59,810 nucleotides of DNA from a virus (Duplodnaviria > Caudoviricetes), in IMG/VR virus record IMGVR_UViG_3300035182_000400, positions 1 through 59,810 of that record. One strand, 5' to 3'. Position 1 is the stretch's first letter; every line of letters starts with the position of its first letter. The notes beneath the pieces were generated by a model. The model had not been told where the DNA came from. It searched no databases and saw only the letters and a list, made by a program, of their open reading frames with translations. The translations under genes and the position numbers were made by a program. Positions 2,917-43,445 of this stretch are shown here, one piece after another.

Positions 2917-3762
2917 TTAGAATTTTAATGCTAACATTTGTCTTGCAGTCAATTCGTATTCTTTCTTATCATCAAGATGATTAGCATACAAATCAATCAT
3001 TTTCAATTCAGCACAAGAGTTAATCCACTTATCTACAAGTTCGTTGTATTTTCTGTTCTCTTCTGCTTCCTCAGGTGTATTGCAAGCACGACAACTTTCT
3101 TCAGACTCAGAAACGTCATGCATAGAATTACCAGTATTATAATAGGTTTGATTCCAATTAAATACTTTATAAGGAACAACTACAGATTCTCTGTTCCCCC
3201 ATAAGTTGGGTTTTTCAGTTGGAGACATAGTAAGATGCTCTAGTGCTTCTTCAATATCTTCTGCTAACTTAGAATTTTCTGATGTTTCTAACACCTTAGC
3301 CAGTGCGAACTGTGCTTTTATATCTTTACCAGATTTCTTAAAAACAATCTTGTCTGACCACTCAAAAGCATCCATATGTGATTTTTCAAGTGCTTCACCA
3401 TCCTCACCTTTTTGCAGTTCTTCAACTTGCTTAGATTTCTCCATAACAAAAACATAACGTTCCATTCCTGGACCATCATTGATGAATACTCTATCAAGTT
3501 TTTGCATGTCACTTTTAGCCTTTTCTAAAATGCTGTTTACTTCTGCAGTATCATTAAATCCTCCCTTGATAATTTCACCACCTGTCGCTTCAGCAACATT
3601 TTTGACGAAATTGTCGATTCCTGCTTTCTCAAGAATAACAAATTTATCTTCTGGGAACGCAGAATTGAACTCCTGAGTTGAGTATGACTTTTCAATATTA
3701 GTAAATCCGCTCATGTTTAATCTATGAGAGAATTTATTTGAATCTAAGAACAAGTTTTCCAT
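2917..3762 (-). CDS. Putative internal head or scaffold-like protein with repeated maturation motifs
   Basis: Acidic 281-aa ORF with IEKS, LEKA, IIKG, LEKA, MEKS, LQKG, LEKS in the N-terminal half. Confidence 0.55.
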   Translation of the reverse strand: MENLFLDSNKFSHRLNMSGFTNIEKSYSTQEFNSAFPEDKFVILEKAGIDNFVKNVAEATGGEIIKGGFNDTAEVNSILEKAKSDMQKLDRVFINDGPGMERYVFVMEKSKQVEELQKGEDGEALEKSHMDAFEWSDKIVFKKSGKDIKAQFALAKVLETSENSKLAEDIEEALEHLTMSPTEKPNLWGNRESVVVPYKVFNWNQTYYNTGNSMHDVSESEESCRACNTPEEAEENRKYNELVDKWINSCAELKMIDLYANHLDDKKEYELTARQMLALKF

Positions 3763-10199: not shown

Positions 10200-10214
10200 T
10201 TTATTTTTAGTTAA

Positions 10215-10724
10215 CTATGCTAACTCCTGCTTTAGCATGATGATATACTTACCTTTGGTAGATATATTAGCTAAACTATCAACCGATTTTCTGTAAGACT
10301 TGTCATTCATCTTCAGAATACCTAACTCATAATGTTGCCATTTATTCTCGGAAATCATATGAACATAAGTATCTGCAAGTTTCTGAGTAGACATTACTTC
10401 ACTTACTACAAATCTCTTATGTACAGAATGACGATAATTAGGCAAATTATCAGGCTTTATTTCGTAGTAAGGATAACCAGAATTTGAGGATATTTCACCG
10501 TCACTCCATTTCTGTTCCATATAATAACGAACCCTTGAACCTATCAAAACTTCTCCATTCTGGTTCATCATATCTTGAGTGCTTCCTGAAAATAGAACCT
10601 GTCTTACTTTTGCCTTATTTATTAAAGTAAGCTGTTGTTGATATTTCTTCTTATCATCAAACAATAATACCGAATAAAGGAATCCATCCCTTTTGTTTGT
10701 CTCAATGTAGTTCAAATTGCTCAT
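10215..10724 (-). CDS. Hypothetical protein
   Basis: 169-aa ORF in a tightly packed operon. Confidence 0.65.
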   Translation of the reverse strand: MSNLNYIETNKRDGFLYSVLLFDDKKKYQQQLTLINKAKVRQVLFSGSTQDMMNQNGEVLIGSRVRYYMEQKWSDGEISSNSGYPYYEIKPDNLPNYRHSVHKRFVVSEVMSTQKLADTYVHMISENKWQHYELGILKMNDKSYRKSVDSLANISTKGKYIIMLKQELA

Positions 10725-10725
10725 A

Positions 10726-10935
10726 CTAATCTATTTTTAAGATACAAGATGGATGTAGAACTAAACAAGTTCCATCCTCTTTTCTTATTAAATAGTTGTC
10801 ATTTGATACAACGTCACCATTATGAACTATGCTAACTAAAATTTTATCTACAACCTCTCCACTTGATTCCTTAGAATTTTCGACATTATCTGTGCCAACT
10901 TCTGTATATCTCACAAATACTTTTCTTCCTATCAT
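10726..10935 (-). CDS. Hypothetical small beta-barrel protein
   Basis: 69-aa ORF in operon. Confidence 0.6.
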   Translation of the reverse strand: MIGRKVFVRYTEVGTDNVENSKESSGEVVDKILVSIVHNGDVVSNDNYLIRKEDGTCLVLHPSCILKID

Positions 10936-12420: not shown

Positions 12421-12667
12421 GATTTCCGTTATGTTTTATTTCTTCGTTTGTATGACCGAATTGATTATCATGATTCTTATTGAACTTGTCATTCTCTTTC
12501 TTCTTTTCCTGATTTTTAATAATCTTGCTTGCGGCTTTTTGTTTTGGCTCTGGTTTCATATTCTTGTTCTGAGTTATCAAATAATTGAATTCAAACTTAG
12601 CTAGTTTTCTTTGTTTAGGATTTAAATATTTCCCACTAATCAATAAATTTAAGTTTTCTACTCCCAT
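12395..12667 (-). CDS. Hypothetical basic protein (start uncertain)
   Basis: 90-aa ORF overlapping both neighbours. Confidence 0.4.
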   Translation of the reverse strand: MGVENLNLLISGKYLNPKQRKLAKFEFNYLITQNKNMKPEPKQKAASKIIKNQEKKKENDKFNKNHDNQFGHTNEEIKHNGNHGKDTFGV

Positions 12668-13305
12668 GCTTTGGAAATTTTAATTATCGATGATTCTTTT
12701 GGTTGACTTTTACTCCACTCTATTTCATACTCAAACTTGTAGCCGCCAGAAGATTTCTTAGAACCGATTAGACATTGTAATATTTCTGTTTGAGAACAAT
12801 CTAAAACTGAAGAAGCAACTTCTAAACATGAAAATGAATATACAAAAAGAGCATCACTTCTCATATTAGGAATCATTGCAATTAATTCTCGGTGACGCTT
12901 TTCTTGTTCAGGTGTTTTCTCTTTGTTTAACGTTAGATTTGTAAGCTGAATTTCTAATCCTTCTAATTCAAAAGTATCTCTGTAAGCTATAATCTCTTCT
13001 TTCTTATTGTAGAAATTTTTGATTATGTTGAAAGTTTGTTTAATGTATTCAAATTCATACAGAACTCCTTGCTGCTTTTGAGATTTGATTTCTAGGAACT
13101 CCTCTGAAGAAATGAATCTAAGCAACTTGAACATATAGATTTCGATGTAACGCATATCAGGCATAGTTCCTTGATTTGTCGCTAGGTCAAGATTTTTAAT
13201 CTCAAGTTCTTGAATTCTATTTTCCAATTGAAAATTCTTATTCTCCAGAAAACCTTTCTCAATCTCTAGTTCTTCAATTTTGAGTTTGTATTTTCCAGCG
13301 AACAT
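12658..13305 (-). CDS. Coiled-coil protein with C-terminal NUMOD1-like HTH
   Basis: YSFSCLEVASSVLDCSQTEILQCLIGSKKSSGGYKFEY matches the NUMOD1 pattern; no HNH or GIY-YIG motif seen. Confidence 0.65.
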   Translation of the reverse strand: MFAGKYKLKIEELEIEKGFLENKNFQLENRIQELEIKNLDLATNQGTMPDMRYIEIYMFKLLRFISSEEFLEIKSQKQQGVLYEFEYIKQTFNIIKNFYNKKEEIIAYRDTFELEGLEIQLTNLTLNKEKTPEQEKRHRELIAMIPNMRSDALFVYSFSCLEVASSVLDCSQTEILQCLIGSKKSSGGYKFEYEIEWSKSQPKESSIIKISKAWE

Positions 13306-13514
13306 TATTCTACGATTAGATTGTATCTAGACATTTCACAAGCTATCTTTAAGTCTTGCAATGTGTCTTCTGATTTTACAGTGAAGCAAAAGAATTTTTC
13401 TCCAACCTTAGTTTTGGATGTTGATATATTCTTTAAATCAAACTTCTTTAGGAAATTCTTATGCTCTGCTGTTTGAGTGAATGAAGTTTCTAACTTCGCT
13501 CTAATCTTGCTCAT
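13305..13514 (-). CDS. Hypothetical protein
   Basis: 69-aa ORF coupled to neighbours. Confidence 0.55.
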   Translation of the reverse strand: MSKIRAKLETSFTQTAEHKNFLKKFDLKNISTSKTKVGEKFFCFTVKSEDTLQDLKIACEMSRYNLIVE

Positions 13515-13962
13515 AAATTACTACGGTTATATATAAGTCGTTAAACTCTGTATTAATCATCTTCTCTACTTCTGACCAATCTCCACCTCCAATTCCGCAT
13601 CCTATTAACGGAATACCAATATGTAAATCTGGAAATTTTTCTCTTATTCTGAATAGAACCGATTCTAAATGTACAAGTTTGAAATCTGGTCCAGGCTTAT
13701 ACTGAGTGTAGGCATTCATAACTTTTAAGTTCGCACCCGACTTTGTCTTAACATCCACTACGGTGTAAGAACCTAATTTATGAACATCCCCTCTTTTTGT
13801 TAGAGCATCGATTTTCTTTGCCTCTGGCCATCTTCGACCAATAGGATAAGCTATTCCAGCAGCCATCGTTGCAAAGCAATTACAACCATGTACTATCATA
13901 TCGAACTCTCCATCGTCTGCTAACTTTATCAAGTCACCTTTTACGTAATCTATACTTTCCAT
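13501..13962 (-). CDS. Macrodomain protein (ADP-ribose binding or hydrolase, T4 tk.4-like)
   Basis: VKGDL, IVHGCNCFATMAAGIA, NAYTQ, IPLIGCGIGGGDW. Confidence 0.9.
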   Translation of the reverse strand: MESIDYVKGDLIKLADDGEFDMIVHGCNCFATMAAGIAYPIGRRWPEAKKIDALTKRGDVHKLGSYTVVDVKTKSGANLKVMNAYTQYKPGPDFKLVHLESVLFRIREKFPDLHIGIPLIGCGIGGGDWSEVEKMINTEFNDLYITVVIYEQD

Positions 13963-20071: not shown

Positions 20072-20725
20072 TTATTCTACAATTACCCAATCCTCAGCTA
20101 AAATGTCTGTCTGAGATGCTAGCCAAGGAACGAATTTATTGTCTGCTGTTTTCATTCCTATCCAAGGCAATAATGTTGAGCCTTCAGATACACGGTCTGC
20201 TTGTTCGTCATGGATAAGCATATCATTGTAGGGTTCAACATGACGGAGCCACATCCCTTTCTCATTCCATCCTCCTCGTGCAACTTTACGTCCTTTCTTC
20301 ATAGCTTCTACTGCTAATCCAAATGTTAATGCATTAGAAGGTCTATTTGTCTCCTCGAATGATTCTTTGTCTTGCCACCACTCTGCTCCGTTATTAGCTA
20401 AACATTTGTAGCCTTCTTTTCCATCCTTCATTTCTGAATGAGCCAATAAGGACTTTGTTCCAATGTAATTTTGATACGGTGAATTGTTCATATTATTTGT
20501 ATTATTTGGTTTAAATTCTATTTTGAATATATTATAACTAAATGGAAGAACAAAACACATTGTTTCATGTATTGGATAAATCAGTCTTTTGAAAAATTGC
20601 CTGCCTGTGACATGAGAAATGAAATTATAACCTCTCTCTGTTACTTTCTCAAAATGATAAGATTTTCCTTGTATCTGATAAACCTCTCCAATTTCCAGAT
20701 TAAATCTTTTTAATCTAACTGTCAT
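20072..20725 (-). CDS. tad2: Tad2 (DUF2829)-like anti-Thoeris/anti-CBASS nucleotide sponge with N-terminal extra domains; probable internal start at 20491
   Basis: C-terminus LTFGLAVEAMKKGRKVARGGWNEKGMWL...IGMKTADNKFVPWLASQTDILAEDW fits the Tad2/DUF2829 signature. Confidence 0.85.
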   Translation of the reverse strand: MTVRLKRFNLEIGEVYQIQGKSYHFEKVTERGYNFISHVTGRQFFKRLIYPIHETMCFVLPFSYNIFKIEFKPNNTNNMNNSPYQNYIGTKSLLAHSEMKDGKEGYKCLANNGAEWWQDKESFEETNRPSNALTFGLAVEAMKKGRKVARGGWNEKGMWLRHVEPYNDMLIHDEQADRVSEGSTLLPWIGMKTADNKFVPWLASQTDILAEDWVIVE

Positions 20726-21871: not shown

Positions 21872-22129
21872 TTATTGTATTAAGTGAATAATTGATTCTG
21901 CTACCTGAATTACTGTCATCTTACCCCATTCTTCTGTATGGTCATCATTGATTGCAATATCGTAATGTTTCTCAATCTCCATACATAATTCTAATCGGTC
22001 AAGACTATCCAAACCTAAGTCATCTTGAAGTTTCAGTTTCGTATCTTCTGAAATCTGCTCTGTATCTACAAGAAATTTGTCAACAATTATCGTGTTGATA
22101 TCCTTTACTAATTGTTCTTTTACGTCCAT
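21872..22129 (-). CDS. acpP: Acyl carrier protein
   Basis: Acidic 85 aa with DDLGLDSLDRLELCMEIEKHYDIAI, containing the phosphopantetheine Ser in DSL. Confidence 0.9.
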   Translation of the reverse strand: MDVKEQLVKDINTIIVDKFLVDTEQISEDTKLKLQDDLGLDSLDRLELCMEIEKHYDIAINDDHTEEWGKMTVIQVAESIIHLIQ

Positions 22130-22130
22130 A

Positions 22131-23279
22131 CTACTTCTTTTTGGGGTTGTTTTTACTTATATCCTTAACTTTGTCCTTTTCTTCTACTGCTGTTTTATTG
22201 TTTATATTGGCTTTCATCCCCATAGACTTTTCTTTCTTTCTGGCTATCTTGTCCAACATCTCCTGCTTGATTCTTTCGGCTCTCGACATATCTTTGTCGT
22301 CATTATTCTCTTCAAGAACAATAGCATCTTCAATTTCGTCATCTCGTTTCTGAGCCTCACGCTTGATTCTTTCAAAGTCGTAATTCATCTGACTTGGGTA
22401 AACTAAGTCCGTTGCTAATGCCTCTTCCTCATTAAAAGTTCCTAATACATTGGAAAACTTATTGTAAAATGAGTTATTTAATGAGTAGATAAGTTTTATT
22501 GGACTAATACCCATTCTGGCTGCTACACGACCTAAAATTATTTCTTTTAGATTTAAAGATTTGTAAACCTCTTCACGCAAATGCATATGTACATTCGCTT
22601 CGTAACTTACATCTACTTTGCCGTTGATTGTTAATCTGTCTCCTTCTGCTTCTTTTCTGATGTGGTCAAGCGTTGATAATAATAGCTTGTAATCCTCACG
22701 TGCGTTCGTGTCGATATATTTGTCTTTTTGTCGACTGTAAAGATAAACCAACTCCTCAAGCCTACTGCGTTTTACTCCTAATCGGATATCAGCATATGAA
22801 GCCTTGAAGATGTCGATTCTTTTCTCAATCTCTTCTCTGTTCTCTGTCCTGAATCTCTTTACGGTATCTTTAGAAACAGGTATGCCCCACTCTTTGTTGA
22901 CAACCTTTAATGTCTCTTCTATCGAGAACATGCGTCCGAATAATTCTACAAGTTCCGTACGTCTGTCTGATAACAGTCCACTACTCCCTTTTACGTTCGC
23001 ACCTCCTTGTGGCTTACCAAATGCCTTCCTTTTTACCGCAGTTAGTTTATTCTGAAGCTTGTAATAAATCGACTTTTTTGTCAAAATACTGTTCTGTTCT
23101 TCGACAGGCAGATGCTCGACTAACTTAGTTATTATATGCGGAAATACAGCTAAATTAACTTCTGTTCCATCCGTACAAATTACAATCTTTTTATTATTTA
23201 AAATAGGATTGACAGACAATTTTAGAAACTCTTGATAGGCTTCTTTATCTACTACACCTTCTGGGATATTATTTTCCAT
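22131..23279 (-). CDS. Hypothetical protein, candidate terminase small subunit or DNA-binding protein
   Basis: 382 aa; HTH-like segment then IRLGVKRSRLEEL...LLSTLDHIRKE, reminiscent of DUF2280/TerS; charged tail. Confidence 0.4.
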   Translation of the reverse strand: MENNIPEGVVDKEAYQEFLKLSVNPILNNKKIVICTDGTEVNLAVFPHIITKLVEHLPVEEQNSILTKKSIYYKLQNKLTAVKRKAFGKPQGGANVKGSSGLLSDRRTELVELFGRMFSIEETLKVVNKEWGIPVSKDTVKRFRTENREEIEKRIDIFKASYADIRLGVKRSRLEELVYLYSRQKDKYIDTNAREDYKLLLSTLDHIRKEAEGDRLTINGKVDVSYEANVHMHLREEVYKSLNLKEIILGRVAARMGISPIKLIYSLNNSFYNKFSNVLGTFNEEEALATDLVYPSQMNYDFERIKREAQKRDDEIEDAIVLEENNDDKDMSRAERIKQEMLDKIARKKEKSMGMKANINNKTAVEEKDKVKDISKNNPKKK

Positions 23280-25474: not shown

Positions 25475-26014
25475 TTACTGTTCATTATTGTTGTATTTGT
25501 AATTATTAAAACTTTCACCCAATATATCTCTCAGACTCATATTTACATTGGTTGCTTTCTCACCCCAATCTATATTCAAATCTCTATCATAAGCAAATAT
25601 ACAAAATTGATGTTCTGGTTCATATTGACAATCTACTGCATAATTAACAACAGTATTATCTTCCAAACATAAAAATCCGTGAGCAAAGCCTTTAGGTATA
25701 AGTAATGTTCTTCTTTCAACATCATCTAATTTCACCTTAAAATGATGTCCGAATGTCTCTGAATCTGGTCTCATATCTAAAACTACATCTAATATTGAAC
25801 CCTTTGAACACCAAACTATTTTAGCTTGTTCGAATGGTTTCTCTTGGAAGTGCAAACCTCTTAAAACACCCTTATGAGACACAGATTGATTCAACTGAAC
25901 CATGTCGAAATTAAATTCCTTTTTGTAAAAAATTACGCTAAATAATCCTCTGTCATCCTTAAACAAATCAGGCTTCAAAACAAATAATCCTTCTGCTAAT
26001 TCTATTGATTCCAT
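25475..26014 (-). CDS. rmlC: dTDP-4-dehydrorhamnose 3,5-epimerase
   Basis: DDRGLF, QLNQSVSHKGVLRGLHFQ, QAKIV, DVVLDMRPDSETFG, IPKGFAHGF. Confidence 0.95.
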   Translation of the reverse strand: MESIELAEGLFVLKPDLFKDDRGLFSVIFYKKEFNFDMVQLNQSVSHKGVLRGLHFQEKPFEQAKIVWCSKGSILDVVLDMRPDSETFGHHFKVKLDDVERRTLLIPKGFAHGFLCLEDNTVVNYAVDCQYEPEHQFCIFAYDRDLNIDWGEKATNVNMSLRDILGESFNNYKYNNNEQ

Positions 26015-33454: not shown

Positions 33455-33484
33455 CCTTATTCGGTATTTTTATAATAAACTATG

Positions 33485-34573
33485 CTAGTGAGATGGATAC
33501 CGTTCTTCAGTCACATCATCGTGTCTAACATCGGTTATTTTCTTAGTCAATATGTCTAACAATTTATTTCTTTCATAATAAAGCTCAAAGAAAGTCCTCT
33601 TGCTCTTCCATTGCATTTTACCCATGAAATCATAAACTGTAGCAGATTTCTTTTTGATTATATTTTTGTCTACAGCATATTGTATATCTTCATCTGAAAG
33701 AATTATACCATATCCTAACAATATTGTTACTTTCGTTTTCTTTCTGCTCCCAAAGTCATTCTTAACAACTTTCATCTCGGTGTATTGTGCAACTTCTATC
33801 TCATCAATTTTCTCATGTCCAACTAAAGTTGTTCTTAATCTAATGGTAGGAAAAAATTGTATCCATTCTCCACCTCCTGATTTCTTCTCCTTTGACATAC
33901 CACCTATTTGGTCGTGTACGTGATTCAAAATTATAAAATGCACAATAGAGTTATACATCTCTCCAGTTAGAAATTTAGCAAACATTTTAGCAGATTTAGC
34001 AAAAGACGCCATTTGAGCATGTTTCAATTCTGATATGTCCTGACCTTTAGCTAGTTTGGATTCCATAGTCTTGGTATTCTCTTCTAAAGTGTCTAATTCA
34101 GCCTTAGACAACGTTGCACCTAAAGAATCCCACATGAAATAAAACTTTGGATTTTCATCCATACCCTCTTCTTTGAAGATTTTTTTAACATCTTCTATTA
34201 ATTTTTTGACCTTCATAAACATCTCCTCAACATACCTTATCTTTATGATAACTACTTTGGAGGGGTCAATACCTATTTTGATAGCATAATCCTTGTTATC
34301 TCTATTCTCTGAAGAAAGTATGACAGCAATCCCATCCTTTTGTTTCTTTAAGAAATGCTTCATTCCTTGTAATGCTAAAGTTGTCTTGCCAGACCTAGAA
34401 AGTCCAGCAATCTCTATCATTCCTGTGGGGAAACCTAGCACTCCTAAGTTGTAATCCAATTCAGGACTTCCTGTTGGAACCCAACTTTTGTTGTCTCTGA
34501 AGTTATCCTTGTCAGAAAATTTAACAACATCTTCACTATTGAATCTCTTAACTAATTTATCAACAACGCTCAT
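33485..34573 (-). CDS. recA: RecA/UvsX-like recombinase
   Basis: PTGSPELD, Walker A GLSRSGKTT, WDSLGA, ILNH, SGGG, KVVKN. Confidence 0.92.
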   Translation of the reverse strand: MSVVDKLVKRFNSEDVVKFSDKDNFRDNKSWVPTGSPELDYNLGVLGFPTGMIEIAGLSRSGKTTLALQGMKHFLKKQKDGIAVILSSENRDNKDYAIKIGIDPSKVVIIKIRYVEEMFMKVKKLIEDVKKIFKEEGMDENPKFYFMWDSLGATLSKAELDTLEENTKTMESKLAKGQDISELKHAQMASFAKSAKMFAKFLTGEMYNSIVHFIILNHVHDQIGGMSKEKKSGGGEWIQFFPTIRLRTTLVGHEKIDEIEVAQYTEMKVVKNDFGSRKKTKVTILLGYGIILSDEDIQYAVDKNIIKKKSATVYDFMGKMQWKSKRTFFELYYERNKLLDILTKKITDVRHDDVTEERYPSH

Positions 34574-34633: not shown

Positions 34634-35794
34634 TTACTTTTTACCTTTTTTCAGTCTTGCACGAATATCATCCATACTCATCTTTCCTTTGGTCTTAGGC
34701 TTTTCGTCTTCATCCTCATCGTCTTCATCATCATCGTCTTCATCCTCATCGTCTTCATCCTCTTCAACAACTACTTTTTTGACAGGCTTTTTCTTTGGAG
34801 TTGGTTTTTCATCCTCATCTTCATCCTCATCGTCTTCATCTTCATCCTCATCCTCATCCTCATCCTCATCTTCATCGTCTTCAACAACTACTTTCTTAGA
34901 AGTTTTCTTAGGCTCAGGCTTCTTAGAAGTTTTCTTCTTAGGTTTTTCATCTTCGTCATCGTCATCGTCATCAGAATCTCCGTATTGAGACTTAACCTTC
35001 TCAACAATCTCTAACCAATCTTCATCATCAAAGAAATCAATCTCATGCTCAGAATCAAAGAATCTTAAACCTTCTAAAGCAAGTTCAAAATCTTTAGTGC
35101 TATACACGTTCAAATAAAGTTCTTGTAATGACTTAGCCTTATCGAACTTCTCAAGATTTTCATCTGAAATCGGTGTTGCTTTCTTTCCTACAGACACCTC
35201 GTAGTAATCTTCACCTTTTTTCTTATTAGGCTTAGAATTATATTTAATCAACAAAGGCAGACCTTCGTCAATATCAGTGAATGGGTCAACTTCAATCGGT
35301 TCATCATCATCCTCTACAAAAGTGGCTTTATTGATAGCATCACGAACAGTTTTCTTAAAAGAAATCAATCCAAATTCTCTTTGTTCTTTTGAGATTTTTT
35401 CTGAATAAGCAATCCAAGAATGCTCTGCTCCAAGACCACCTTTCCAGTCAGTTACTTTAGAAAGTTTATCCTTATCATCAAGGTGTTTTTTGCAGTAATC
35501 AACATACTCATCAATTACATCTAATTTTGTTCCTCCATGTTGTCTAGAGTTCAATACAGTTCTCTTGACTGGGTCTCCATTCTCACCTTCGATAGTAAGC
35601 CAATGTCTCTTTCTTAATATAAAGAAATCCACACCGTCATGAGCTGGGAATAATCGGAACTTGTTTGTTTTTCCTTCTTCAATTTCCAAGAACTCATTTT
35701 TTGAAAATGCTCCTATGAGCTCATTTTCTTTGTCTACCTTTTGTTTAAGTAAATCAACCTTCGCAGGCTTGTACTTGCTTCTTAAATTTGCCAT
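34634..35794 (-). CDS. gp32-like single-stranded DNA-binding protein with long acidic/basic tail
   Basis: NKFRLFP, DPFTDIDEG, YYEVS core; D/E blocks; located between a UvsY-like gene and recA. Confidence 0.8.
   Translation of the reverse strand: MANLRSKYKPAKVDLLKQKVDKENELIGAFSKNEFLEIEEGKTNKFRLFPAHDGVDFFILRKRHWLTIEGENGDPVKRTVLNSRQHGGTKLDVIDEYVDYCKKHLDDKDKLSKVTDWKGGLGAEHSWIAYSEKISKEQREFGLISFKKTVRDAINKATFVEDDDEPIEVDPFTDIDEGLPLLIKYNSKPNKKKGEDYYEVSVGKKATPISDENLEKFDKAKSLQELYLNVYSTKDFELALEGLRFFDSEHEIDFFDDEDWLEIVEKVKSQYGDSDDDDDDEDEKPKKKTSKKPEPKKTSKKVVVEDDEDEDEDEDEDEDEDDEDEDEDEKPTPKKKPVKKVVVEEDEDDEDEDDDDEDDEDEDEKPKTKGKMSMDDIRARLKKGKK
34706..34975 (-). repeat. Low-complexity GAN codon repeats encoding poly-Asp/Glu blocks
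   Basis: (tcatcc/tcatct/tcgtct)n runs on the plus strand. Confidence 0.85.
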
Positions 35795-35823: not shown

Positions 35824-36357
35824 TTACTTGATTTTTCCGTCCTTTATCTTAAAGTAGACATTATTCATCTGTCTTTGAATTATATCTAAATCTACATCTC
35901 CAGGTCTCAGAGTCATACTCAATTTATCCAGCTTAGTTGACTTATCCCTAGCAGCTTGATAAATAGAATACATATACTCTTTTTCTTTCTGTATTCGGTG
36001 CATTTTGACTCTCTTCACCTTCCAAATCTTATCACAAAGTAAAGCACTTTCCACCTCATCCACAGTCGCTCTTTTGACTTTGCCCTTTTCATCTGAAGTC
36101 TCCATTTCATCTCTCAACTGATTTTTTCGCTTCGCTTCGTAAATCGACAAATCCAATTTGGCTTGTTGAAATTCATTATCCATATCCGCAGCAAGTAAAC
36201 CGAATTTATTCACAACAACAGGGAATGTGATTAATTCCGCCATCAGATTTGAATAATCAATTTTCAAAATCATATCTATGTCAATATCATTGAAATCCCC
36301 AACTTCAAATTTGACTACCTTTTCGCCAATATTGAATATTAATTCTTTACTTCTCAT
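35824..36357 (-). CDS. UvsY-like recombination mediator (coiled coil)
   Basis: Helical 177 aa with ATVDEVES-type motif, adjacent to ssb and recA. Confidence 0.55.
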   Translation of the reverse strand: MRSKELIFNIGEKVVKFEVGDFNDIDIDMILKIDYSNLMAELITFPVVVNKFGLLAADMDNEFQQAKLDLSIYEAKRKNQLRDEMETSDEKGKVKRATVDEVESALLCDKIWKVKRVKMHRIQKEKEYMYSIYQAARDKSTKLDKLSMTLRPGDVDLDIIQRQMNNVYFKIKDGKIK

Positions 36358-36358
36358 A

Positions 36359-36625
36359 TTACTCTAATATTTCGTGTTTAATACTGTTTGTGTTTTGATG
36401 CACCTCAATCATCCTTTCAAGATAATCTTTGGCTTTCAATAAGTCTGTTAAATTCCTAGCCTTTGAACTTCCAGGTCTTGTGAACCTATCCAAATAACGC
36501 TTTACATTCTCTGAAGTCCAAACATCTCCATATTCAATTCCTTTTCTGTAATTCAAAGAAATCTGGTCAAACTCTTTGTCACCATATTTGGCCCTGTTTG
36601 ATTTTTCTAATTCAGTTAAATCCAT
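36359..36625 (-). CDS. DUF3310-family protein (T7 gp1.7-like; candidate nucleotide kinase)
   Basis: ENVKRYLDRF...NLTDLLKAKDYLERMI fits the DUF3310 N..KY..R...DL.KA..YL pattern. Confidence 0.65.
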   Translation of the reverse strand: MDLTELEKSNRAKYGDKEFDQISLNYRKGIEYGDVWTSENVKRYLDRFTRPGSSKARNLTDLLKAKDYLERMIEVHQNTNSIKHEILE

Positions 36626-37215
36626 TTTTGTTTGTCTATTATTTCTATTAAAATAGTCGTATTATAGTTTTTAAGATAAGGCATAGCATCAATACAAGAT
36701 TCCTTAACTCTTTGAACACAATATATTTGCTGCTCAACAAGAGCAGTATTGCCAAGGCTTAATTCCTTTTTTAGATAAAATAACATGGACAACCAATCCG
36801 CAACCTTTACTAACTTCTTTATGTGATATGGTATTTCTAAAGACATAATATCAGACATAAGTTTTTCAGAATTTCTGGACGTGTCAAACTTTTCTGCTAC
36901 TTTTTCTTTAACTATCAACTCCAGCAAATACCTTAGTTCTTCACCATGTTTAGTTCCATACTTTACACCGTGAACAATGTCTCCTGTGAACATCTCATCG
37001 AAATCATGGAACATCCCATAAGTAGTTGCAAATAGCTTATTTTGACAATCATTTTTGTCAAAAATTTCTTCAGACAACAACCTAGTAACCATAGCTACAA
37101 AGAATGAATGATGAGCTACTGTTTCATCTTTAATTCTATTTAATCCATTCCAACGAACCATATTGTTTAATTGGTCGAAATCAGGGTCATGGAAGATTTT
37201 ATCAATTATATTCAT
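36616..37215 (-). CDS. HD-domain deoxynucleotide phosphohydrolase (YfbR-like)
   Basis: VRW...ETVAHHSF...HDFDEMFTGDI...VK...VKVAD. Confidence 0.9.
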   Translation of the reverse strand: MNIIDKIFHDPDFDQLNNMVRWNGLNRIKDETVAHHSFFVAMVTRLLSEEIFDKNDCQNKLFATTYGMFHDFDEMFTGDIVHGVKYGTKHGEELRYLLELIVKEKVAEKFDTSRNSEKLMSDIMSLEIPYHIKKLVKVADWLSMLFYLKKELSLGNTALVEQQIYCVQRVKESCIDAMPYLKNYNTTILIEIIDKQKWI

Positions 37216-37531
37216 TTGCTAATATTTCTTGTTCGATAATACTTAACTCTGCTTCATTCGTTTCTTCTATTTGTGCAGATGTTCTTTTTTCAAATCTCCA
37301 AGTAGCAAATGCAGGCTCTTGCATTCTGTTAATCAATTTTATAAATATTGCAGGATTTGAAATCTCTTCTAATAAAATTCCTACCACTATATCATCATTG
37401 AAATAAATCTCTTTGACAGTATATGGTTTTCCTTTCTTGACCCAATTCACATACATATTGATTATCGGAAAAATCATTTCTGACTTTATAGAATCATTAA
37501 TACACAATACTTTATCTCCAACTTCAAACAT
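37202..37531 (-). CDS. Hypothetical SH3-like protein
   Basis: MFEVGDKVLCIND...GKPYTV...FATWRF. Confidence 0.6.
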   Translation of the reverse strand: MFEVGDKVLCINDSIKSEMIFPIINMYVNWVKKGKPYTVKEIYFNDDIVVGILLEEISNPAIFIKLINRMQEPAFATWRFEKRTSAQIEETNEAELSIIEQEILANEYN

Positions 37532-37537
37532 ATTATC

Positions 37538-40500
37538 TTAATTTATTACTAGGAACTCTGTTCTGCGTTCTGTTGAACCTCTCCTTTCGCTTACAGTATT
37601 TATAGATTTACCATATTGCTCTTGATAAGTAATCTTACAATTTATTGCAACCAAAGACTTATTTTTTTCTAATCTGTCTAATTTTTCTATAACTCTCTCA
37701 TAACAATCGTTCCATACAGTCACAATCATAACAACATTGTTAGATTCTACAGAAACTCTAGCATATGGCAATTTTGATTGTTTGTATTTCAGATGTTTAA
37801 TATACATTATCCTTCCTACTATTGTAGCATCTTTAGGAAATTTCAAATCCTTATAAGACTTTTTATCGTACTCTTCAGCAGATACAAAATTCTTAACAAG
37901 ATGCTTCACTTTATTTTTCTTCTCGTATCTTTGAAGAAGAGACAAGAAGTTTATGTCTCCGAATCCTGTTAGTGCTTTCTGTTCTGTAACCCAGTACCAA
38001 TTAGAATTAGAATTAGCGTCAAGTGTCTCAGGATATGGGTCTGATTTTGTTAATTTGGAATGATTTTCTAATAACGTCTTTCTGCTTTTTTCGTCTTCCA
38101 ATGGCAATCCATATTGACCTCCTATATTATCGAATGCTCCTGAAATTATCAAAGCCTTAACAACTCTTTTGTTCACCTTGGCTTTTGGAACTCTATTCAT
38201 AAAATCTTCTAAGTCGCTGAAGTCTCCATTCTCATTGCGTTCATTCAGCATTACATTGGCTGCAACTAATCCCACATTCTTAATCTTAGTTAAAGACCAA
38301 TATATGCTATTATCGTCAGGGAAACCAACGAAAAATAAGTCAGACTTATTGACACATGGTGGCTTTATTTTTATCTCAGAACCTATTTTACGTATCTCTG
38401 AAATCCTATTCGGAACTTCTTCATCATAAGACGCAAAATTTAATGAGGCAGTCCAAAACTCTAAAGGATATTTTACTTTCAAATATTGACACCAATATCC
38501 CATTAAAGCATATGCCGCTGAGTGCGACCTATTGAAACCATAACTAGAGAATGCCATTAGCTTGTCCCAAACGGCTTCTGCGCCATCACAATCTCCGTCA
38601 ATCATTTTAGAATAATTCTCTACAAATCTCGCTCTAAACTTTCCAAGATTTTCTTTATCGAATTTCTTTATATAAGTTCTGCATTCGTCAGCTTCCACAA
38701 GAGACAATCCTCCGACAACCATGGCTTGCATTATCTGTTCTTGATACACATAAAGTCCGTGCGTATTTTCAGTTACTATCTCCATGAATGGGTCAAATAT
38801 AGCTTTCTTCTTTCCGTGTTTTATATCGGCAAAATCTTTATGAGCATTTGAATCCATTGGTCCAGGTCTGAACAAGGCGTTCATAGAAATCAAATCTTCG
38901 ATACCATCTGGTCTAACATTTTTAGAATAAGTCTTCAAACCTGATGTCCCAAATTGAAATACATCTTCGCTCCACCCATATTTAAAAAATTCCATCACAC
39001 TAGGCAAATCTATTTTTATCTTATTTAGATTGACCTTTTTTCCTCTATTTTTCTTTATTAAATCAAGTATATTTCTAAATTTGTCTAACTGAGAAATACC
39101 TAAAATATCAGCCTTCAAAAATCCTGCAGCATCAATAAATTTCCCTTCCCATTCAGATACTAATTGTCCGTCAATCTTTTTTACAGGCATCCAATCATAT
39201 ATAGTCATGGGATTTCCATTCTTATCTTCTTTCGGAACTATAAGAACAGCAGATGCGTGTATTGAAGATGTTTTAGGTTGGTTGATAGATATTCTAACTA
39301 AGTCGCAAACTTCTGTATTATTCTGAACGAATTTCTTCAGTACAGGTTTTTCACAAGCATTTTTGAATATATCACCCCAAAAACTTTTACCAATTACATC
39401 AGGTATCTCCTTTGTTGCAAAATTAGCATCTTGGAATGAAATGCCCGACACTCTGGAGAAATCTTTCAAAGCAGATTTGTTCTTCATTCTGGCATAAGTA
39501 CCTATCGAACAAACGTTATTCTGTGTGTACTTCTCTTCGATATATTTTTTAACATCTTGTCTTCTTATTCCTTCAAAATCTATGTCTATATCAGGCAGAC
39601 TATCAGCAGACTTTGCTCTCTCTCCAGATACACGTGTCTTATTCAAAAAACGCTCAAATAACAAGTTATATTGAATAGGGTCAATTTCTATAATGCCTAA
39701 TAAATAAGCAACCAAAGAACCTCCAGCAGAACCCCTACCAGGTCCAACAAGTATGTTTTGTGTTTTACACCATTCCACAACATCCCAAAGCATTAGAAAA
39801 TAATCAACAAATCCTGCTCCTACAATTACACTATTTTCTTCTTCAAGTCTTTTGTAGTAACTGATTATTTTATCTTCGTCATCATGGAATTTATCTATTA
39901 CTTTCTTTTGAAATCCTTTGTCTAATAATTCGTGATATAATGATTCCGAATCAGGATGTTCAAATTTAGGCAACTTGTGATTTCCAGTATCAATAGAATA
40001 GTCACATGATTCAGCTATGACTACGGTATTTGAAACTGACTCTAATATAACATCGAATTTTTCAGGATTTTTTGAAAAAAGAGGCAAAATTTTATCTAAT
40101 GCCTGGTCTACAGTTTTATAATATTGGTCTTTAGAAGATAGCCTTGTTTTTCTATCGACTTGGTTCAAAATTGATTTTATTTTGTAATCTGTTTTCTCTA
40201 TATAATAAGAATCATTTATCATAACAGGCTTCAAAACGTCACTGAAGTTGTCTATGTAGAATCTCATATTACTCAAATGTTGCATATCTACAGAATCATC
40301 CTCGAACTCTACAGAATCAATTTGATAATACAAATCTTTCTTGAAATACTTTTTGTATTTTTTTAAAATCTTATTGGCTGACTCAGATGTTATGTTATGA
40401 TTAAAATAACTATCTAAAGGAATCACACAAATTATTCCGTCAACAAACTCAAACAACTCGTCTTCTGGAATGAACTTGTCATATTCTACATTTATTGCTT

Positions 40501-41131
40501 TCCCTATTCTTAGAAGATTCCTCCAACCTTGTTCATTTTTTACAAATAACTTCAAATCAAACAACGAATGATGTTCGTCTGAAGAATCGAAATCATATGC
40601 AACCGATACTGTTTGTCCTAGAACTGATTTGATGCCTTTCTTCTTACAAGCTAATTGGAATGGTAGTGTGGCAGCTAATGTATTCTTATCAGACAAACCA
40701 ATGCATTTCTGATTTAAGAAAGATGCCTTAGAAATCCAATATTCTGGTTCTGCTGAGCCGTTTAATAACTCATAACCAGTATGAACTCCTAAATGAACAA
40801 AGTCTATATCCAATTCTGAAACATACACTCCGATGTTTATAAAATCTTTAAATTCAGGAACAAAGATGTCTTCATTATATTCGTCTTTCCTAATCTTCTT
40901 TTCAGAATAGTAAAACTTATCACCCCATTTAAATAGGATATATTTTATATCATCCTCAGATATTCTGTAAAATTCATCTTCAGTTAGGATGAAGGAAAAG
41001 TCACTTGATATCACTTTTCCTTCTTTTTCTTCTATGAAGACTAATTTACCAAAATCTTGTACATCTAACACGTTTTTTTCAATCGTGCACTTAATAGACT
41101 TTTGTTCAATCCAATCCTTCAATTCCTTCAT
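37538..41131 (-). CDS. dnaE: DNA polymerase III alpha subunit (family C)
   Basis: PHP VHLGVHT, GPGRGSAGGSL, FERFLN, PDIDIDF, KADILG, RPGP, YQEQIM, YGFNRSHS, C-terminal OB fold. Confidence 0.97.
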   Translation of the reverse strand: MKELKDWIEQKSIKCTIEKNVLDVQDFGKLVFIEEKEGKVISSDFSFILTEDEFYRISEDDIKYILFKWGDKFYYSEKKIRKDEYNEDIFVPEFKDFINIGVYVSELDIDFVHLGVHTGYELLNGSAEPEYWISKASFLNQKCIGLSDKNTLAATLPFQLACKKKGIKSVLGQTVSVAYDFDSSDEHHSLFDLKLFVKNEQGWRNLLRIGKAINVEYDKFIPEDELFEFVDGIICVIPLDSYFNHNITSESANKILKKYKKYFKKDLYYQIDSVEFEDDSVDMQHLSNMRFYIDNFSDVLKPVMINDSYYIEKTDYKIKSILNQVDRKTRLSSKDQYYKTVDQALDKILPLFSKNPEKFDVILESVSNTVVIAESCDYSIDTGNHKLPKFEHPDSESLYHELLDKGFQKKVIDKFHDDEDKIISYYKRLEEENSVIVGAGFVDYFLMLWDVVEWCKTQNILVGPGRGSAGGSLVAYLLGIIEIDPIQYNLLFERFLNKTRVSGERAKSADSLPDIDIDFEGIRRQDVKKYIEEKYTQNNVCSIGTYARMKNKSALKDFSRVSGISFQDANFATKEIPDVIGKSFWGDIFKNACEKPVLKKFVQNNTEVCDLVRISINQPKTSSIHASAVLIVPKEDKNGNPMTIYDWMPVKKIDGQLVSEWEGKFIDAAGFLKADILGISQLDKFRNILDLIKKNRGKKVNLNKIKIDLPSVMEFFKYGWSEDVFQFGTSGLKTYSKNVRPDGIEDLISMNALFRPGPMDSNAHKDFADIKHGKKKAIFDPFMEIVTENTHGLYVYQEQIMQAMVVGGLSLVEADECRTYIKKFDKENLGKFRARFVENYSKMIDGDCDGAEAVWDKLMAFSSYGFNRSHSAAYALMGYWCQYLKVKYPLEFWTASLNFASYDEEVPNRISEIRKIGSEIKIKPPCVNKSDLFFVGFPDDNSIYWSLTKIKNVGLVAANVMLNERNENGDFSDLEDFMNRVPKAKVNKRVVKALIISGAFDNIGGQYGLPLEDEKSRKTLLENHSKLTKSDPYPETLDANSNSNWYWVTEQKALTGFGDINFLSLLQRYEKKNKVKHLVKNFVSAEEYDKKSYKDLKFPKDATIVGRIMYIKHLKYKQSKLPYARVSVESNNVVMIVTVWNDCYERVIEKLDRLEKNKSLVAINCKITYQEQYGKSINTVSERRGSTERRTEFLVIN

Positions 41132-42321
41132 TACATTTTTCCTATTGGAGAAGTAAGGTTAACAGAAACTATTTCTTTGTCTTTTACTTTAGTCGCAAAG
41201 AAATTAACAGATAATGCTATTATATCTAACGATGGATAAAAGTTGGATAAAATAGTCAATTTGTCTATCGTCTTCCATTTGTCAGTGTCTTTTCGCTCAG
41301 TTCCTTTATAATCAACATATAACATCAATAAGTCGTAAACAAGGTGTAAATATTTAGAAAATTTACATAAAGTTTGTTCTTCTGTTTCGGTTATTCTCTT
41401 ATTGTTCTTTATTGAATCAATAATCATGCTTAGAAAATAATCTACTTCTGAAAGTCTGCCTTCAATTGATTCTGCATCGAAACACATATCCATTTTACCA
41501 GGTACGAATACGCTGTACAAATCCTCAAAATTACCATTAGTTAATTGAATCTCATCGTACATCTTCCAAGCAATCTCATTGTCGTTATAAATATGTAGAC
41601 TTTGAGAATTATGAGTTTGTGTTCCTAACTCTAATCCTAATATGTTAGACATAATCTCAGTTAAGAAACTAAACTGAAAAACGTTGGTTGGAAGTCCCCA
41701 ATGTAAATCATTACTTCTATTAGAAATAGTAGTTCTCAATTTTCCATTTCGGATTTTTATGAATACCATATCATTACAAGGTAAATCTTTTGAAGAAGTT
41801 CCTAAATCCAAGTCTGCATTCCAAATTTGCATTACTGCTCTTCGTGTTTCAGAATCTTTGTGTAAATCTTTTAACGTTTGAAGAATCTGGTCGACTCCAT
41901 TATTAGATTGCTCTACGGCATGGCCATTATTTTCTGGTGAAGTAGGTAAAGTCCTATCAAAAGAAGAAACACCATGATGTCTGAGTCTAAAACCATATGG
42001 AGCATGGAATGTCTTACCATCGTCAGAATAATTCTTCATATTAGAATTAAATATATCTAAAAATTCCACATCCTTTTCTCCTCTGAAAATCCAGATAGCT
42101 TCTGCTAATAAGAAAAATATGTTTATATCTCTGGAATTGTTCCCGACACATCTTTTGTATGGATTAGTAAGCGTAGTTTTGAAATCGATGATTTCTCTTG
42201 TGTCGCCATTTCTACTTTCTACAGAATCTCCGTTCTCTATAACATACTTGTTTATGAACGGATATGTTTCAGAGAAGCAAGATGTTACTACAGAGTCATT
42301 AATAATATTCTTCAAAGTCAT
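41131..42321 (-). CDS. thyA: Thymidylate-synthase-superfamily enzyme, probably dUMP hydroxymethylase
   Basis: SRNG, AEAIW, YSDDG...APYG, TRRA, DLPCN, NRSNDLHWGLPTN, SLHIY; the Asn implies a dUMP substrate. Confidence 0.88.
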   Translation of the reverse strand: MTLKNIINDSVVTSCFSETYPFINKYVIENGDSVESRNGDTREIIDFKTTLTNPYKRCVGNNSRDINIFFLLAEAIWIFRGEKDVEFLDIFNSNMKNYSDDGKTFHAPYGFRLRHHGVSSFDRTLPTSPENNGHAVEQSNNGVDQILQTLKDLHKDSETRRAVMQIWNADLDLGTSSKDLPCNDMVFIKIRNGKLRTTISNRSNDLHWGLPTNVFQFSFLTEIMSNILGLELGTQTHNSQSLHIYNDNEIAWKMYDEIQLTNGNFEDLYSVFVPGKMDMCFDAESIEGRLSEVDYFLSMIIDSIKNNKRITETEEQTLCKFSKYLHLVYDLLMLYVDYKGTERKDTDKWKTIDKLTILSNFYPSLDIIALSVNFFATKVKDKEIVSVNLTSPIGKM

Positions 42322-42353
42322 AATAAAGATTTTTTATTTTTAGTAACTATGCT

Positions 42354-42382
42354 AAAAAAGGCACCCTTTCGAGTGCCTTTTT
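42354..42382 (-). terminator. Intrinsic terminator
   Basis: AAAAAGGCAC...GTGCCTTTTTT with GAAA in the loop. Confidence 0.85.
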
Positions 42383-42404
42383 ATTACATATCAATTAGAT
42401 TTAA

Positions 42405-43445
42405 TTATTTCTTAGATTTTTTCTTGATAGGAGCAACAGGTGCCTCTTCTTTCTTAGATTTAATATTCTCTACTTTTTTCTTGTTTGAAGATTTCAAATC
42501 ATTTTCCATCTTCTCACGATTTTTACCTAACTTCTCATCTTTCTTAGAAAGATTTGAAACAACAGTATCAAATGCATCTTTATTTTCTTCGATACACTCA
42601 ACCAATTCGTCTAGTGAGATACCCATCACAAGCATATTACCTGACCAAGACTTCTTGATTTCAAAATCTTCTCCAAATAATTCACGAAGAACATTTTCAT
42701 CACGAACAGAAGACATATAAACTCGTCCGATAATTTCACCATCTTTAGTAACTTTAGGTGAATCAAATGACATGAATACTTTCTTGTTATTTTTTCCTAA
42801 GAATTTTACAGAAACACCTCCATTTGCAATAAAGTTGTATTCAAAGTCTTTTCCTAATGCTTTCTTTAAAGCATTGAATTTCTTCGCATCATCTTCTGAC
42901 ACCAAAGGATTCAAACGTTTAGAAACTTTCGATTCAGCTGTTTTCTTAACTTTATCTACAGTTTCCTTTTTAGCTTTCTTATCCACTGTCTTCTGAATCT
43001 TGTCATTCTTTTTCTCTACTTCGACAGACTTCTTAGCAGACTTTTTCTTTGGGGCAGGTGCCTCTTCTTCGTCTTCATCTTCATCCTCGTCTTCATCCTC
43101 GTCCTCGTCCTCGTCCTCGTCTTCATCTTCATCCTCATCCTCATCTTCCTCGACAACTTTCTTTGAAGATTTTTTCTTTGGAGCAGGCTTTTCGTCTTCA
43201 TCCTCTTCATCCTCTTCAACTTCGTCAGCTAAATCCTCTTTAGCTTGGTCGCTATCTTCGTACATAGCATCAACCATTTCGTACAAATCTTCGTAAGAGT
43301 CGTCCTCAACATCTTCGATATCATTCTCATTCAAGAATTCAATCATTTTTTCTCTTGCTTCTTCAACAGTCTTTACTCCTGTGATACCTACGTTAGAAAG
43401 TCCTTTCAATTGGTCTTTATCTAACTTTACATCTTTTTTTGCCAT
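42405..43445 (-). CDS. Highly charged protein with long poly-Asp/Glu tract and Lys-rich segments
   Basis: 346 aa, about 30-residue E/D run; flanked by its own promoter and terminator. Confidence 0.8.
   Translation of the reverse strand: MAKKDVKLDKDQLKGLSNVGITGVKTVEEAREKMIEFLNENDIEDVEDDSYEDLYEMVDAMYEDSDQAKEDLADEVEEDEEDEDEKPAPKKKSSKKVVEEDEDEDEDEDEDEDEDEDEDEDEDEDEEEAPAPKKKSAKKSVEVEKKNDKIQKTVDKKAKKETVDKVKKTAESKVSKRLNPLVSEDDAKKFNALKKALGKDFEYNFIANGGVSVKFLGKNNKKVFMSFDSPKVTKDGEIIGRVYMSSVRDENVLRELFGEDFEIKKSWSGNMLVMGISLDELVECIEENKDAFDTVVSNLSKKDEKLGKNREKMENDLKSSNKKKVENIKSKKEEAPVAPIKKKSKK
43062..43225 (-). repeat. Low-complexity 6-bp (Glu-Asp)n repeats
   Basis: (tcgtcc/tcatcc/tcatct)n on the plus strand. 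Confidence 0.85.

Follow-up and report, generated by a model that had tools for sequence, protein, structure and literature searches.

A candidate thymine-replacement pathway combining a predicted dUMP hydroxymethylase with a DnaE replicase in a lineage of uncultured tailed phages

The classical scheme for thymine replacement in phages combines a hydroxymethylase with a dTTPase, a dTMPase and a kinase (as summarised in PMC8989533), and the published pathways turn 5-hydroxymethyluracil (hmU) in DNA either into T or into a hypermodified base (PMC5889632, PMC8989533). According to PMC13458397, host kinases can perform the phosphorylation step in the published pathways, which do not require a kinase from the phage. 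Described systems include those of Bacillus phage SPO1, which keeps hmU, and of the hypermodifying phages M6 (Pseudomonas), ViI (Salmonella) and PhiW-14 (Delftia). Here, a gene cluster was analysed that lies at 36359–42321 on the minus strand of a virus record from IMG/VR (i.e. IMGVR_UViG_3300035182_000400; Duplodnaviria, Caudoviricetes). The window analysed is the entire record of 59,810 bases, which has a CheckV completeness estimate of 60%, a G+C content of 31–37% and nearly all of its genes on the minus strand. The cluster encodes a thymidylate synthase (TS)-like protein that is most likely a dUMP hydroxymethylase, a family-C DNA polymerase (DnaE) and a YfbR-like HD phosphohydrolase. The reading preferred here, with a probability of roughly two in three, is that these genes constitute a pre-replicative pathway for 5-hydroxymethyldeoxyuridine (hmdU) in which the predicted hydroxymethylase is coupled to the DnaE replicase and to the hydrolase.

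The genes of the cluster are tightly spaced. The first (41131–42321) encodes the TS-superfamily enzyme of 396 aa (i.e. the predicted dUMP 5-hydroxymethylase, with catalytic Cys182, Asp179 and Asn213) and overlaps by 1 nt with the gene for a full-length DnaE of 1197 aa (37538–41131). A gap of 6 nt separates dnaE from a 109-aa open reading frame (ORF; 37202–37531), which overlaps by 14 nt with the gene for the predicted HD-domain deoxynucleotide phosphohydrolase of 199 aa (36616–37215). This gene in turn overlaps by 10 nt with an ORF for an 88-aa protein (36359–36625), and a 1-nt gap leads to the gene for a conserved 177-aa neighbour (35824–36357; phrog_20212). A preliminary description of this DNA, made from the sequence alone, had proposed a coupled operon with the order TS-like gene, dnaE, small ORF, HD gene and 88-aa ORF; the coordinates agree exactly with that proposal, and the close spacing is in keeping with it.

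The thymidylate synthase homolog

Similarity of the TS-like protein to known families was examined using profile and pairwise searches. The protein matched PF00303 with 88.1 bits over residues 23–248 (cut-off 24.3), as compared to 51–77 bits for the TS homologs of M6, ViI, PhiW-14 and SPO1 and 299 bits for the canonical ThyA of Chryseobacterium phage MA9V-3, and it matched phrog_5131 at 7e-73. None of 50,697 phage records exhibited more than 60% identity. The best matches in cultured phages were to SPO1-like phages (i.e. SPO1 gp29, 38.5% identity; SP-10, 39.1%); annotations among the cultured-phage matches include dUMP hydroxymethylase, deoxyuridylate hydroxymethyltransferase and, for a gene of the Manatee Spring podovirus, 'pyrimidine hmase'. 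In BLASTP comparisons with reference ORFs, SPO1 gp29 aligned at 1e-46 with 38% identity over 239 aa, and scores were 152 bits for SPO1 gp29, 135 for M6 gp58, 102 for PhiW-14 and 93 for ViI, but only 33–35 bits for canonical ThyA (i.e. MA9V-3 and T4 td exon 1). T4 gp42 gave no BLASTP match at 1e-3. The top sequence match among solved structures was the CMP hydroxymethylase MilA (1.4e-18).

A maximum-likelihood tree was constructed for 35 rows, comprising 19 labelled sequences and 16 metagenomic homologs selected by number from the 120 listed; the intron-split T4 td was left out, and the remaining phage matches were not among the rows. A branch with supports of 99/96 joined the query family (18 rows) to SPO1 gp29, SP10, M6, ViI and PhiW-14, and the canonical TS sequences, T4 gp42 and the TS homolog of Carin-5 fell outside this hydroxymethylase clade. 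The preliminary description had named clustering with canonical ThyA as an outcome that would count against a hydroxymethylase; the protein grouped instead with the dUMP hydroxymethylases. Its placement in this clade is support from homology and not proof of the same chemistry.

The active site was compared residue by residue in the numbering of E. coli ThyA. R21, E58, Y94, R126/R127, C146 (i.e. Cys182 of the TS-like protein), R166, D169, N177 (i.e. Asn213), H207 and Y209 were kept. Replacements were found at W80 (Tyr), W83 (Asp, within the YSDDG motif), H147 (Asn, giving PCN) and L143 (Asp179); the equivalents of Q165 and C168 were both Asn, producing the NRSND motif, and the TS C-terminus was replaced by an extension of ~130 aa. 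The residue substitutions are identical to those of SPO1, M6, ViI and PhiW-14. The peptide motifs listed in the preliminary description (i.e. DLPCN, NRSNDLHWGLPTN and YSDDG...APYG) were all present in the translation. Asp179 precedes the catalytic Cys by three residues, in the sequence KDLPCN, and xDxPCN was present in 80 of 80 family ORFs. The ternary-complex study of T4 dCMP hydroxymethylase (dCH) proposes, as a signature of hydroxymethylation, a water-activating Asp three residues before the catalytic Cys together with a Ser-x-Tyr geometry, and assigns to E. coli Trp83 a role in restricting solvent access (PMC6400193). Position 177 sets the choice between uracil and cytosine, Asn denoting uracil, as stated in PMC8670742; this position is Asn213 in the TS-like protein and Asp in T4 gp42 and MilA, in agreement with the earlier statement that Asn selects dUMP.

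Genes for folate recycling and alternative thymidylate synthesis were also sought. Dihydrofolate reductase (DHFR) was found in none of ten family records, while the canonical phage TS genes of Lw1 and Goe3 adjoin DHFR. Absence of DHFR would be expected if the product of the enzyme were tetrahydrofolate (THF) rather than dihydrofolate. ThyX was not found. The similarity ranking, tree, active-site residues, synteny and pairing with the HD gene all support the earlier proposal that this homolog makes hmdUMP, and the protein encoded at 41131–42321 can be assigned as a dUMP hydroxymethylase with good, though predictive, confidence.

Conservation of the cluster, DnaE and the HD phosphohydrolase

A profile of the enzyme was searched against IMG/VR and found 119 stretches, from which 80 loci were kept, many of them on contigs of 85–125 kb. 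An enzyme identical to that of the window occurs on six contigs, of which the longest has 96,857 bases. DnaE was directly downstream of the hydroxymethylase in all 74 loci with enough flanking sequence, the HD gene was present in 57 of 57 relatives, and the 177-aa gene was kept after the position of the small ORF. By comparison, the 109-aa ORF lies outside the conserved core; it had no Pfam or PHROG match and was found solely in the closest relative (L016) among the 80 loci. One relative of 98,717 bases (G001), rated 100% complete, was collinear with the whole window at ~78% nucleotide identity, and its sequence beyond the window-equivalent part carried mostly structural genes.

The DnaE protein contained PHP (PF02811), PF07733, PF17657 and PF14579 matches, all above cut-off, with PHP, NTPase/palm, finger and HhH regions in order, and matched phrog_405 at 5.8e-216. 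Its nearest cultured relatives (30–37% identity) are encoded by phages of Chryseobacterium, Cellulophaga, Tenacibaculum and Bacteroides. The preliminary description had placed the phage in a Bacteroidota host; this assignment rests solely on the DnaE similarity, as no tRNA genes were present in the window and an RmlC-like protein had no relatives in a genome-contig search, leaving no other hint of the host. It had also remarked that a DnaE polymerase would be unusual in this setting, which holds for the sample tested, since Pfam searches detected DnaE in none of 13 other phage records carrying an enzyme of the hydroxymethylase clade. No description of hmU in phages of Flavobacteriia or of DnaE with 5-hmdU was found in the limited literature searched; the supplements of PMC8989533 and PMC5889632 list metagenomic contigs, among which members of the family may already be present.

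Of 75 family loci, 26 (e.g. L063, L067 and L093) have DnaE divided between two ORFs. In some of these the halves are ~0.75–0.9 kb apart, possibly through an inserted mobile gene. The phages with the nearest cultured DnaE proteins (i.e. MA9V-3, L001, and Cellulophaga phage phi13:1, L002) carry queE, folE and queD-type 7-deazaguanine genes near DnaE. Phages of this host group with DnaE appear to combine the polymerase with differing base-modification systems.

The HD protein matched PF12917 with 74.8 bits (cut-off 25.9). Its best solved relative was E. coli YfbR (2paq, 4e-7), with which the RW, H, HD..E, GD and D motifs aligned; these are presumably the metal and substrate motifs. Matches were obtained to only seven cultured-phage records, three of which were YerA41, its relative GN1 and Carin-5, and the window protein was barely alignable in pairwise comparison with M6 gp59 (E 0.12). 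YerA41 and Carin-5 are described as heavily T-modified in PMC13697223. The earlier assignment to the HD phosphohydrolases was therefore upheld as far as a YfbR-like family is concerned; that dTMP or dTTP is the substrate was deduced from context, and the prospects that the enzyme depletes dT nucleotides are judged to be about even.

A proposed hmdU pathway and its alternatives

The family PF18723 (HMUDK_hel, formerly aGPT-Pplase1) is a marker of thymidine hypermodification. Among the reference phages it was detected in ViI, M6 (gp55) and PhiW-14 and, as a fusion, in SP10 gp186, but not in SPO1 or T4. A 338-aa protein of the complete relative matched this family at 4e-48, the family was present in nine of nine near-complete relatives, and of the 29 contigs that reach 85 kb and encode the enzyme, 26 appeared among the listed PF18723 homologs. 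In the complete relative the gene is situated just past the position of the window's left end. As PF18723 was within a 13-kb stretch also holding a homolog of the window's 281-aa gene (2917–3762) in 76 of 79 loci, the window probably just misses its own copy.

Partners of PF18723 in the published pathways were searched for in the same records. The P-loop 5-hmdU DNA kinase (5-HMUDK; PF18748) and the amino-acid:DNA transferase (AADT; PF18724) were each detected in none of ten family records and in five of eight reference phages used as positive controls, and single-protein searches with M6 gp54 and gp51 found nothing in the window or the complete relative. Further phmmer searches were performed against all ORFs of the window, the complete relative and IMG/VR loci L041–L199, using five 5-HMUDK-type kinases, three dNMP kinases, T7 gp1.7, M6 gp51 and P26218 gp14, and revealed no homolog of these. 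Only SP10 gp186 and M6 gp55 matched, both onto PF18723 homologs. Among the modification genes suggested in the preliminary description, aGPT-Pplase was thus found, in the relatives, and 5-HMUDK, DHFR and dCMP deaminase were not. With PF18723 present in relatives, the modification may not end at plain hmU; hmU in the DNA probably undergoes further processing or recognition, in which neither the 5-hmdU DNA kinase nor the AADT of known pathways takes part.

In the proposed pathway, a phage dUTPase (11736–12158, minus strand; phrog_135, 7.8e-48), already recognised in the preliminary description, would supply dUMP. The hydroxymethylase would transfer the methylene group of CH2-tetrahydrofolate to C5 of dUMP and then add water instead of hydride, yielding 5-hmdUMP and THF. 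Phosphorylation of hmdUMP might be carried out by host kinases and/or, more tenuously, by the 88-aa protein; the HD enzyme would clear competing thymidine nucleotides (i.e. dTMP and/or dTTP), and DnaE would place hmdU opposite A. A later post-replicative step probably involves the aGPT-Pplase1-family protein. Much or all of the T in virion DNA would then be likely to be replaced by hmU or one of its derivatives, and the DNA would probably be chemically disguised against host defences.

Several observations weigh against this pathway. The whole route is deduced from sequence, and the PF18723 gene is absent from the window itself, a 60%-complete record. In the tree, the query family branches as a sister of the group that holds the validated enzymes and not from within that group (supports 87/96 and 91/70), so that its function could have changed along its own branch. 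The TS homolog of Carin-5, a phage with reported T modification, falls outside the 99/96 clade, indicating that clade membership is not the sole route to hmU. The Ser found two residues before the catalytic-base Tyr in the T4 dCH signature is Ala107 in the TS-like protein; the alignment showed Ala or Gly at this position in SPO1, SP10, M6, ViI and PhiW-14, and as the Ser half is missing from all of the validated dUMP enzymes in the alignment, it appears to be specific to dCMP enzymes. A search for dCMP deaminase gave no match, and none of the proteins was recognised as a P-loop dNMP kinase. Relatives of the HD protein include tri-, di- and monophosphate hydrolases of other specificity (e.g. 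OxsA), and its best PHROG is labelled 'dATP triphosphohydrolase' (1.4e-18).

The remaining difficulties concern the 88-aa protein, which the preliminary description had assigned to DUF3310 and given the role of kinase. The protein itself had no match to the Pfam DUF3310 model, either as a protein (E up to 1) or in six-frame translation (E up to 10), and no PHROG match. It has 57 strongly conserved metagenomic homologs; weak matches to PF11753 (DUF3310) at E up to 1 were obtained for 18 of 33 scanned family members, of which one was above cut-off (35.2 bits, cut-off 24) and is 55% identical to the window protein. T7 gp1.7, annotated as a nucleotide kinase, scores 81.5 bits for DUF3310, a domain linked to nucleotide kinase activity in PMC9339283; an hhalign comparison of the 88-aa family with the single sequence of T7 gp1.7 returned a probability of 0.4%. 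An AlphaFold model depicted a confident four-helix protein (pLDDT 87.9), for which Foldseek found no match in the PDB at E <= 0.001. MazG appeared in rows at E ~3–4 (TM 0.45–0.47) and was not counted as a structural relative. The slot between the HD and 177-aa genes always held a small ORF in relatives from IMG/VR, and a profile of the 88-aa family matched it in 39 of 63 loci. After removal of 17 apparent duplicates (by eye) and three identical loci, 43 distinct relatives were left; the slot was occupied by Nmad1/DUF1599 in 11 of these, and two reached DUF3310. Two slot proteins were ~205 aa long, one of which (that of L064, the only one inspected) starts with a Walker-A-like motif. As hhalign gave a probability of 0.1% between the 88-aa family and the Nmad1-type proteins, the slot seems to be filled by unrelated families, and this variability weakens the case for a fixed kinase role. 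The earlier assignment is therefore reduced to a possible distant family relationship, and it is doubtful that the 88-aa protein is the kinase.

One alternative overlaps with the proposed pathway, accepting the hydroxymethylase and differing only in the end product: hmU would be an intermediate that the PF18723 protein and partners convert to a hypermodified thymine or back to T, leaving virions with little free hmU. The occurrence of PF18723 throughout the near-complete relatives and in most of the large contigs, its distribution between the hypermodifying phages and hmU-keeping SPO1, and the published conversions of hmU in DNA all favour this outcome. The two enzymes that known pathways have been shown to need (i.e. 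PF18748 and PF18724) were missing from every family record examined, and M6 gp55 was dispensable in the in-vitro step reported in PMC8989533. This alternative is considered a serious but minority possibility. An ordinary, divergent thymidylate synthase making dTMP, accompanied by an HD protein and small proteins acting as general nucleotide-pool enzymes, would account for the Pfam and database names, which all say thymidylate synthase, for the retention of most catalytic TS residues and for a pairing of dUTPase with TS that is common in phages. Such an enzyme is improbable given scores of 33–35 bits against canonical ThyA and 93–152 against hydroxymethylases, a well-supported branch apart from canonical TS, the replacement of W80, W83, H147 and the C-terminus, and the lack of the DHFR gene found beside the canonical TS genes of Lw1 and Goe3.

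Hydroxymethylation of dCMP or CMP, leading to T4-like hydroxymethylcytosine DNA or a MilA-like nucleoside product, was also considered, because MilA is the best solved-structure match and the enzyme has in common with T4 gp42 both RSND and an Asp before the Cys. The specificity position is Asn and not the Asp of T4 gp42 and MilA, and T4 gp42 is both outside the clade and unmatched by BLASTP, making this substrate choice slightly harder still to sustain than dTMP synthesis. A final alternative would detach the HD protein from the TS homolog and place it, as a DatZ-like dATP triphosphohydrolase, in a 2-aminoadenine (Z-genome) system, in keeping with the label of its best PHROG and with one of its seven phage matches being so named (i.e. 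that of Burkholderia phage Bm1). Against this, the HD and hydroxymethylase genes were linked in all of 57 relatives, as well as in M6, P26218 and the Manatee Spring phage. PurZ (PF00709) was absent from both records searched (i.e. the window and the complete relative; control 14/14), and the Z-genome reading, hardly credible on these data, was rejected.

If the hmdU pathway is correct, pre-replicative thymine replacement extends to a family-C replicase, and a natural DnaE accepting hmdUTP would bear on polymerase enzymology and on the production of modified DNA. The occurrence of PF18723 without its usual partners would provide a clean genetic background for probing the function of this family. 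The lineage is common in viral metagenomes, and modified DNA is a possible source of bias in library preparation and in methods that use restriction. A broader proposal is offered more speculatively and is thought rather unlikely in its entirety: that a widespread uncultured lineage of ~90–125 kb phages, represented by the 119 IMG/VR stretches, replicates thymine-substituted DNA with DnaE and finishes the base by an undescribed chemistry that employs a stand-alone PF18723 protein, without 5-HMUDK or AADT.

Flanking features and comparison with known systems

The TS-like gene is preceded by a gap of 83 nt after the gene for an acidic protein. RNA folding identified within this gap a 12-bp hairpin followed by a T-run (~42354–42383, minus strand; -20.6 kcal/mol, z = -5.9, with none of 200 shuffles as good) that resembles an intrinsic terminator ending the upstream gene; it was missing from the list of a simple terminator scan. 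Directly after it comes the motif TAGCATAGTT (42345–42354), 24–33 nt before the TS-like start. Four exact copies of this 10-mer (10213–10222, 10825–10834, 33478–33487 and 42345–42354, minus strand) were present in the window, all on the coding strand, as compared to 0.16 expected, and none of 100 shuffles contained four; with one mismatch, nine were found versus 5.1 expected, an excess that was not significant. Since three of the four copies are 13–25 nt upstream of a start codon, with an A/T-rich stretch between, the motif is a candidate phage promoter or leader element. Both the terminator and the motif had been proposed in the preliminary description to precede the operon, and the folding and motif counts agree with this. 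Two proteins with long Asp/Glu-rich low-complexity tracts and weak PHROG matches to ssDNA-binding proteins (34634–35794 and 42405–43445, minus strand) are kept around the operon in relatives.

Elsewhere on the minus strand, at 21872–23279 and 25475–26014, an acyl-carrier-protein-like gene (phrog_5934, 5.5e-13) adjoins the gene for a 382-aa protein without a family match, and an RmlC-like dTDP-4-dehydrorhamnose 3,5-epimerase (phrog_8784, 1.9e-41) is encoded ~2 kb away. These genes could be host-surface morons or part of a DNA-modification route. The same strand encodes a protein with a Thoeris anti-defence Tad2-like domain (20072–20725; PF11195, 9.1e-24), a macro-domain-like protein (13501–13962; phrog_335 'phosphatase', 3e-53, with Pfam Macro below cut-off) and a 215-aa protein (12658–13305) whose similarity to the NUMOD-like domain of the SPO1 homing endonuclease I-HmuI is weak and below cut-off.

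In Maribacter phage Molly_4 (L031; MT732454.1, 2222–6981), a TS homolog of the hydroxymethylase clade directly follows genes annotated as UDP-glucose dehydrogenase, NAD-dependent epimerase and beta-glucosyltransferase. This arrangement suggests a glycosylated hydroxymethyl-pyrimidine, a prediction for which the article on the Molly phage (PMC8776804) contained no matching terms in its main text.

The closest characterised enzyme is SPO1 gp29, which is of similar length (383 versus 396 aa), shares the PCN, NRSNDLHWG and [FY]SDDG...APYG motifs and is encoded near a polymerase gene in a phage whose pre-replicative logic is summarised in PMC8989533. SPO1 differs in lacking DnaE (by Pfam) and PF18723 and in having no HD gene annotated beside gp29, and the window enzyme belongs to a separate sister subfamily. 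The YuA-like cassette of M6, a phage shown to pass through hmdU, contains in a row the hydroxymethylase gp58, the YfbR-like HD protein gp59 (35.4 bits), gp60, the DUF3310-like gp61 (21.9 bits, slightly under cut-off) and the DNA polymerase gp62, and M6 also has the PF18723 protein gp55. Unlike the window family, M6 possesses the P-loop 5-HMUDK gp54, the AADT gp51 and PLP and rSAM enzymes, and it lacks DnaE. Rhodoferax phage P26218 and the Manatee Spring podovirus carry AADT, kinase, hydroxymethylase and HD genes in that order. In ViI and PhiW-14, too, the hydroxymethylase is the first gene of a small nucleotide operon, which is located among genes for replication and recombination, but there it is accompanied by a P-loop dNMP kinase and a dUTPase_2-type dimeric NTP pyrophosphohydrolase, with no HD or DUF3310-like gene and no DnaE; Vibrio phage D528 has the same combination of hydroxymethylase, dNMP kinase and dUTPase_2. 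The repeated association of a nucleotide hydrolase, and often a kinase, with the hydroxymethylase across phages fits the classical dTTPase/dTMPase/kinase scheme.

T4 gp42 resembles the window enzyme in its TS fold, in the RSND motif and in having an Asp three residues ahead of its catalytic Cys, but has Asp at the base-specificity position, retains Trp at the W80 equivalent, lacks the C-terminal extension (246 aa) and falls outside the clade. The DnaE phages of Flavobacteriia (i.e. MA9V-3 and Cellulophaga phages phi13:1 and phiST) resemble the window in their DnaE (35–37% identity, with the Cellulophaga DnaE also split) and differ in carrying queE, folE and queD genes; MA9V-3 has a canonical ThyA (299 bits) and no hydroxymethylase. 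Relative to these systems, the predicted first step follows known chemistry; the family of the polymerase, the phage lineage and the downstream gene set, which is reduced and non-canonical, set the pathway apart.

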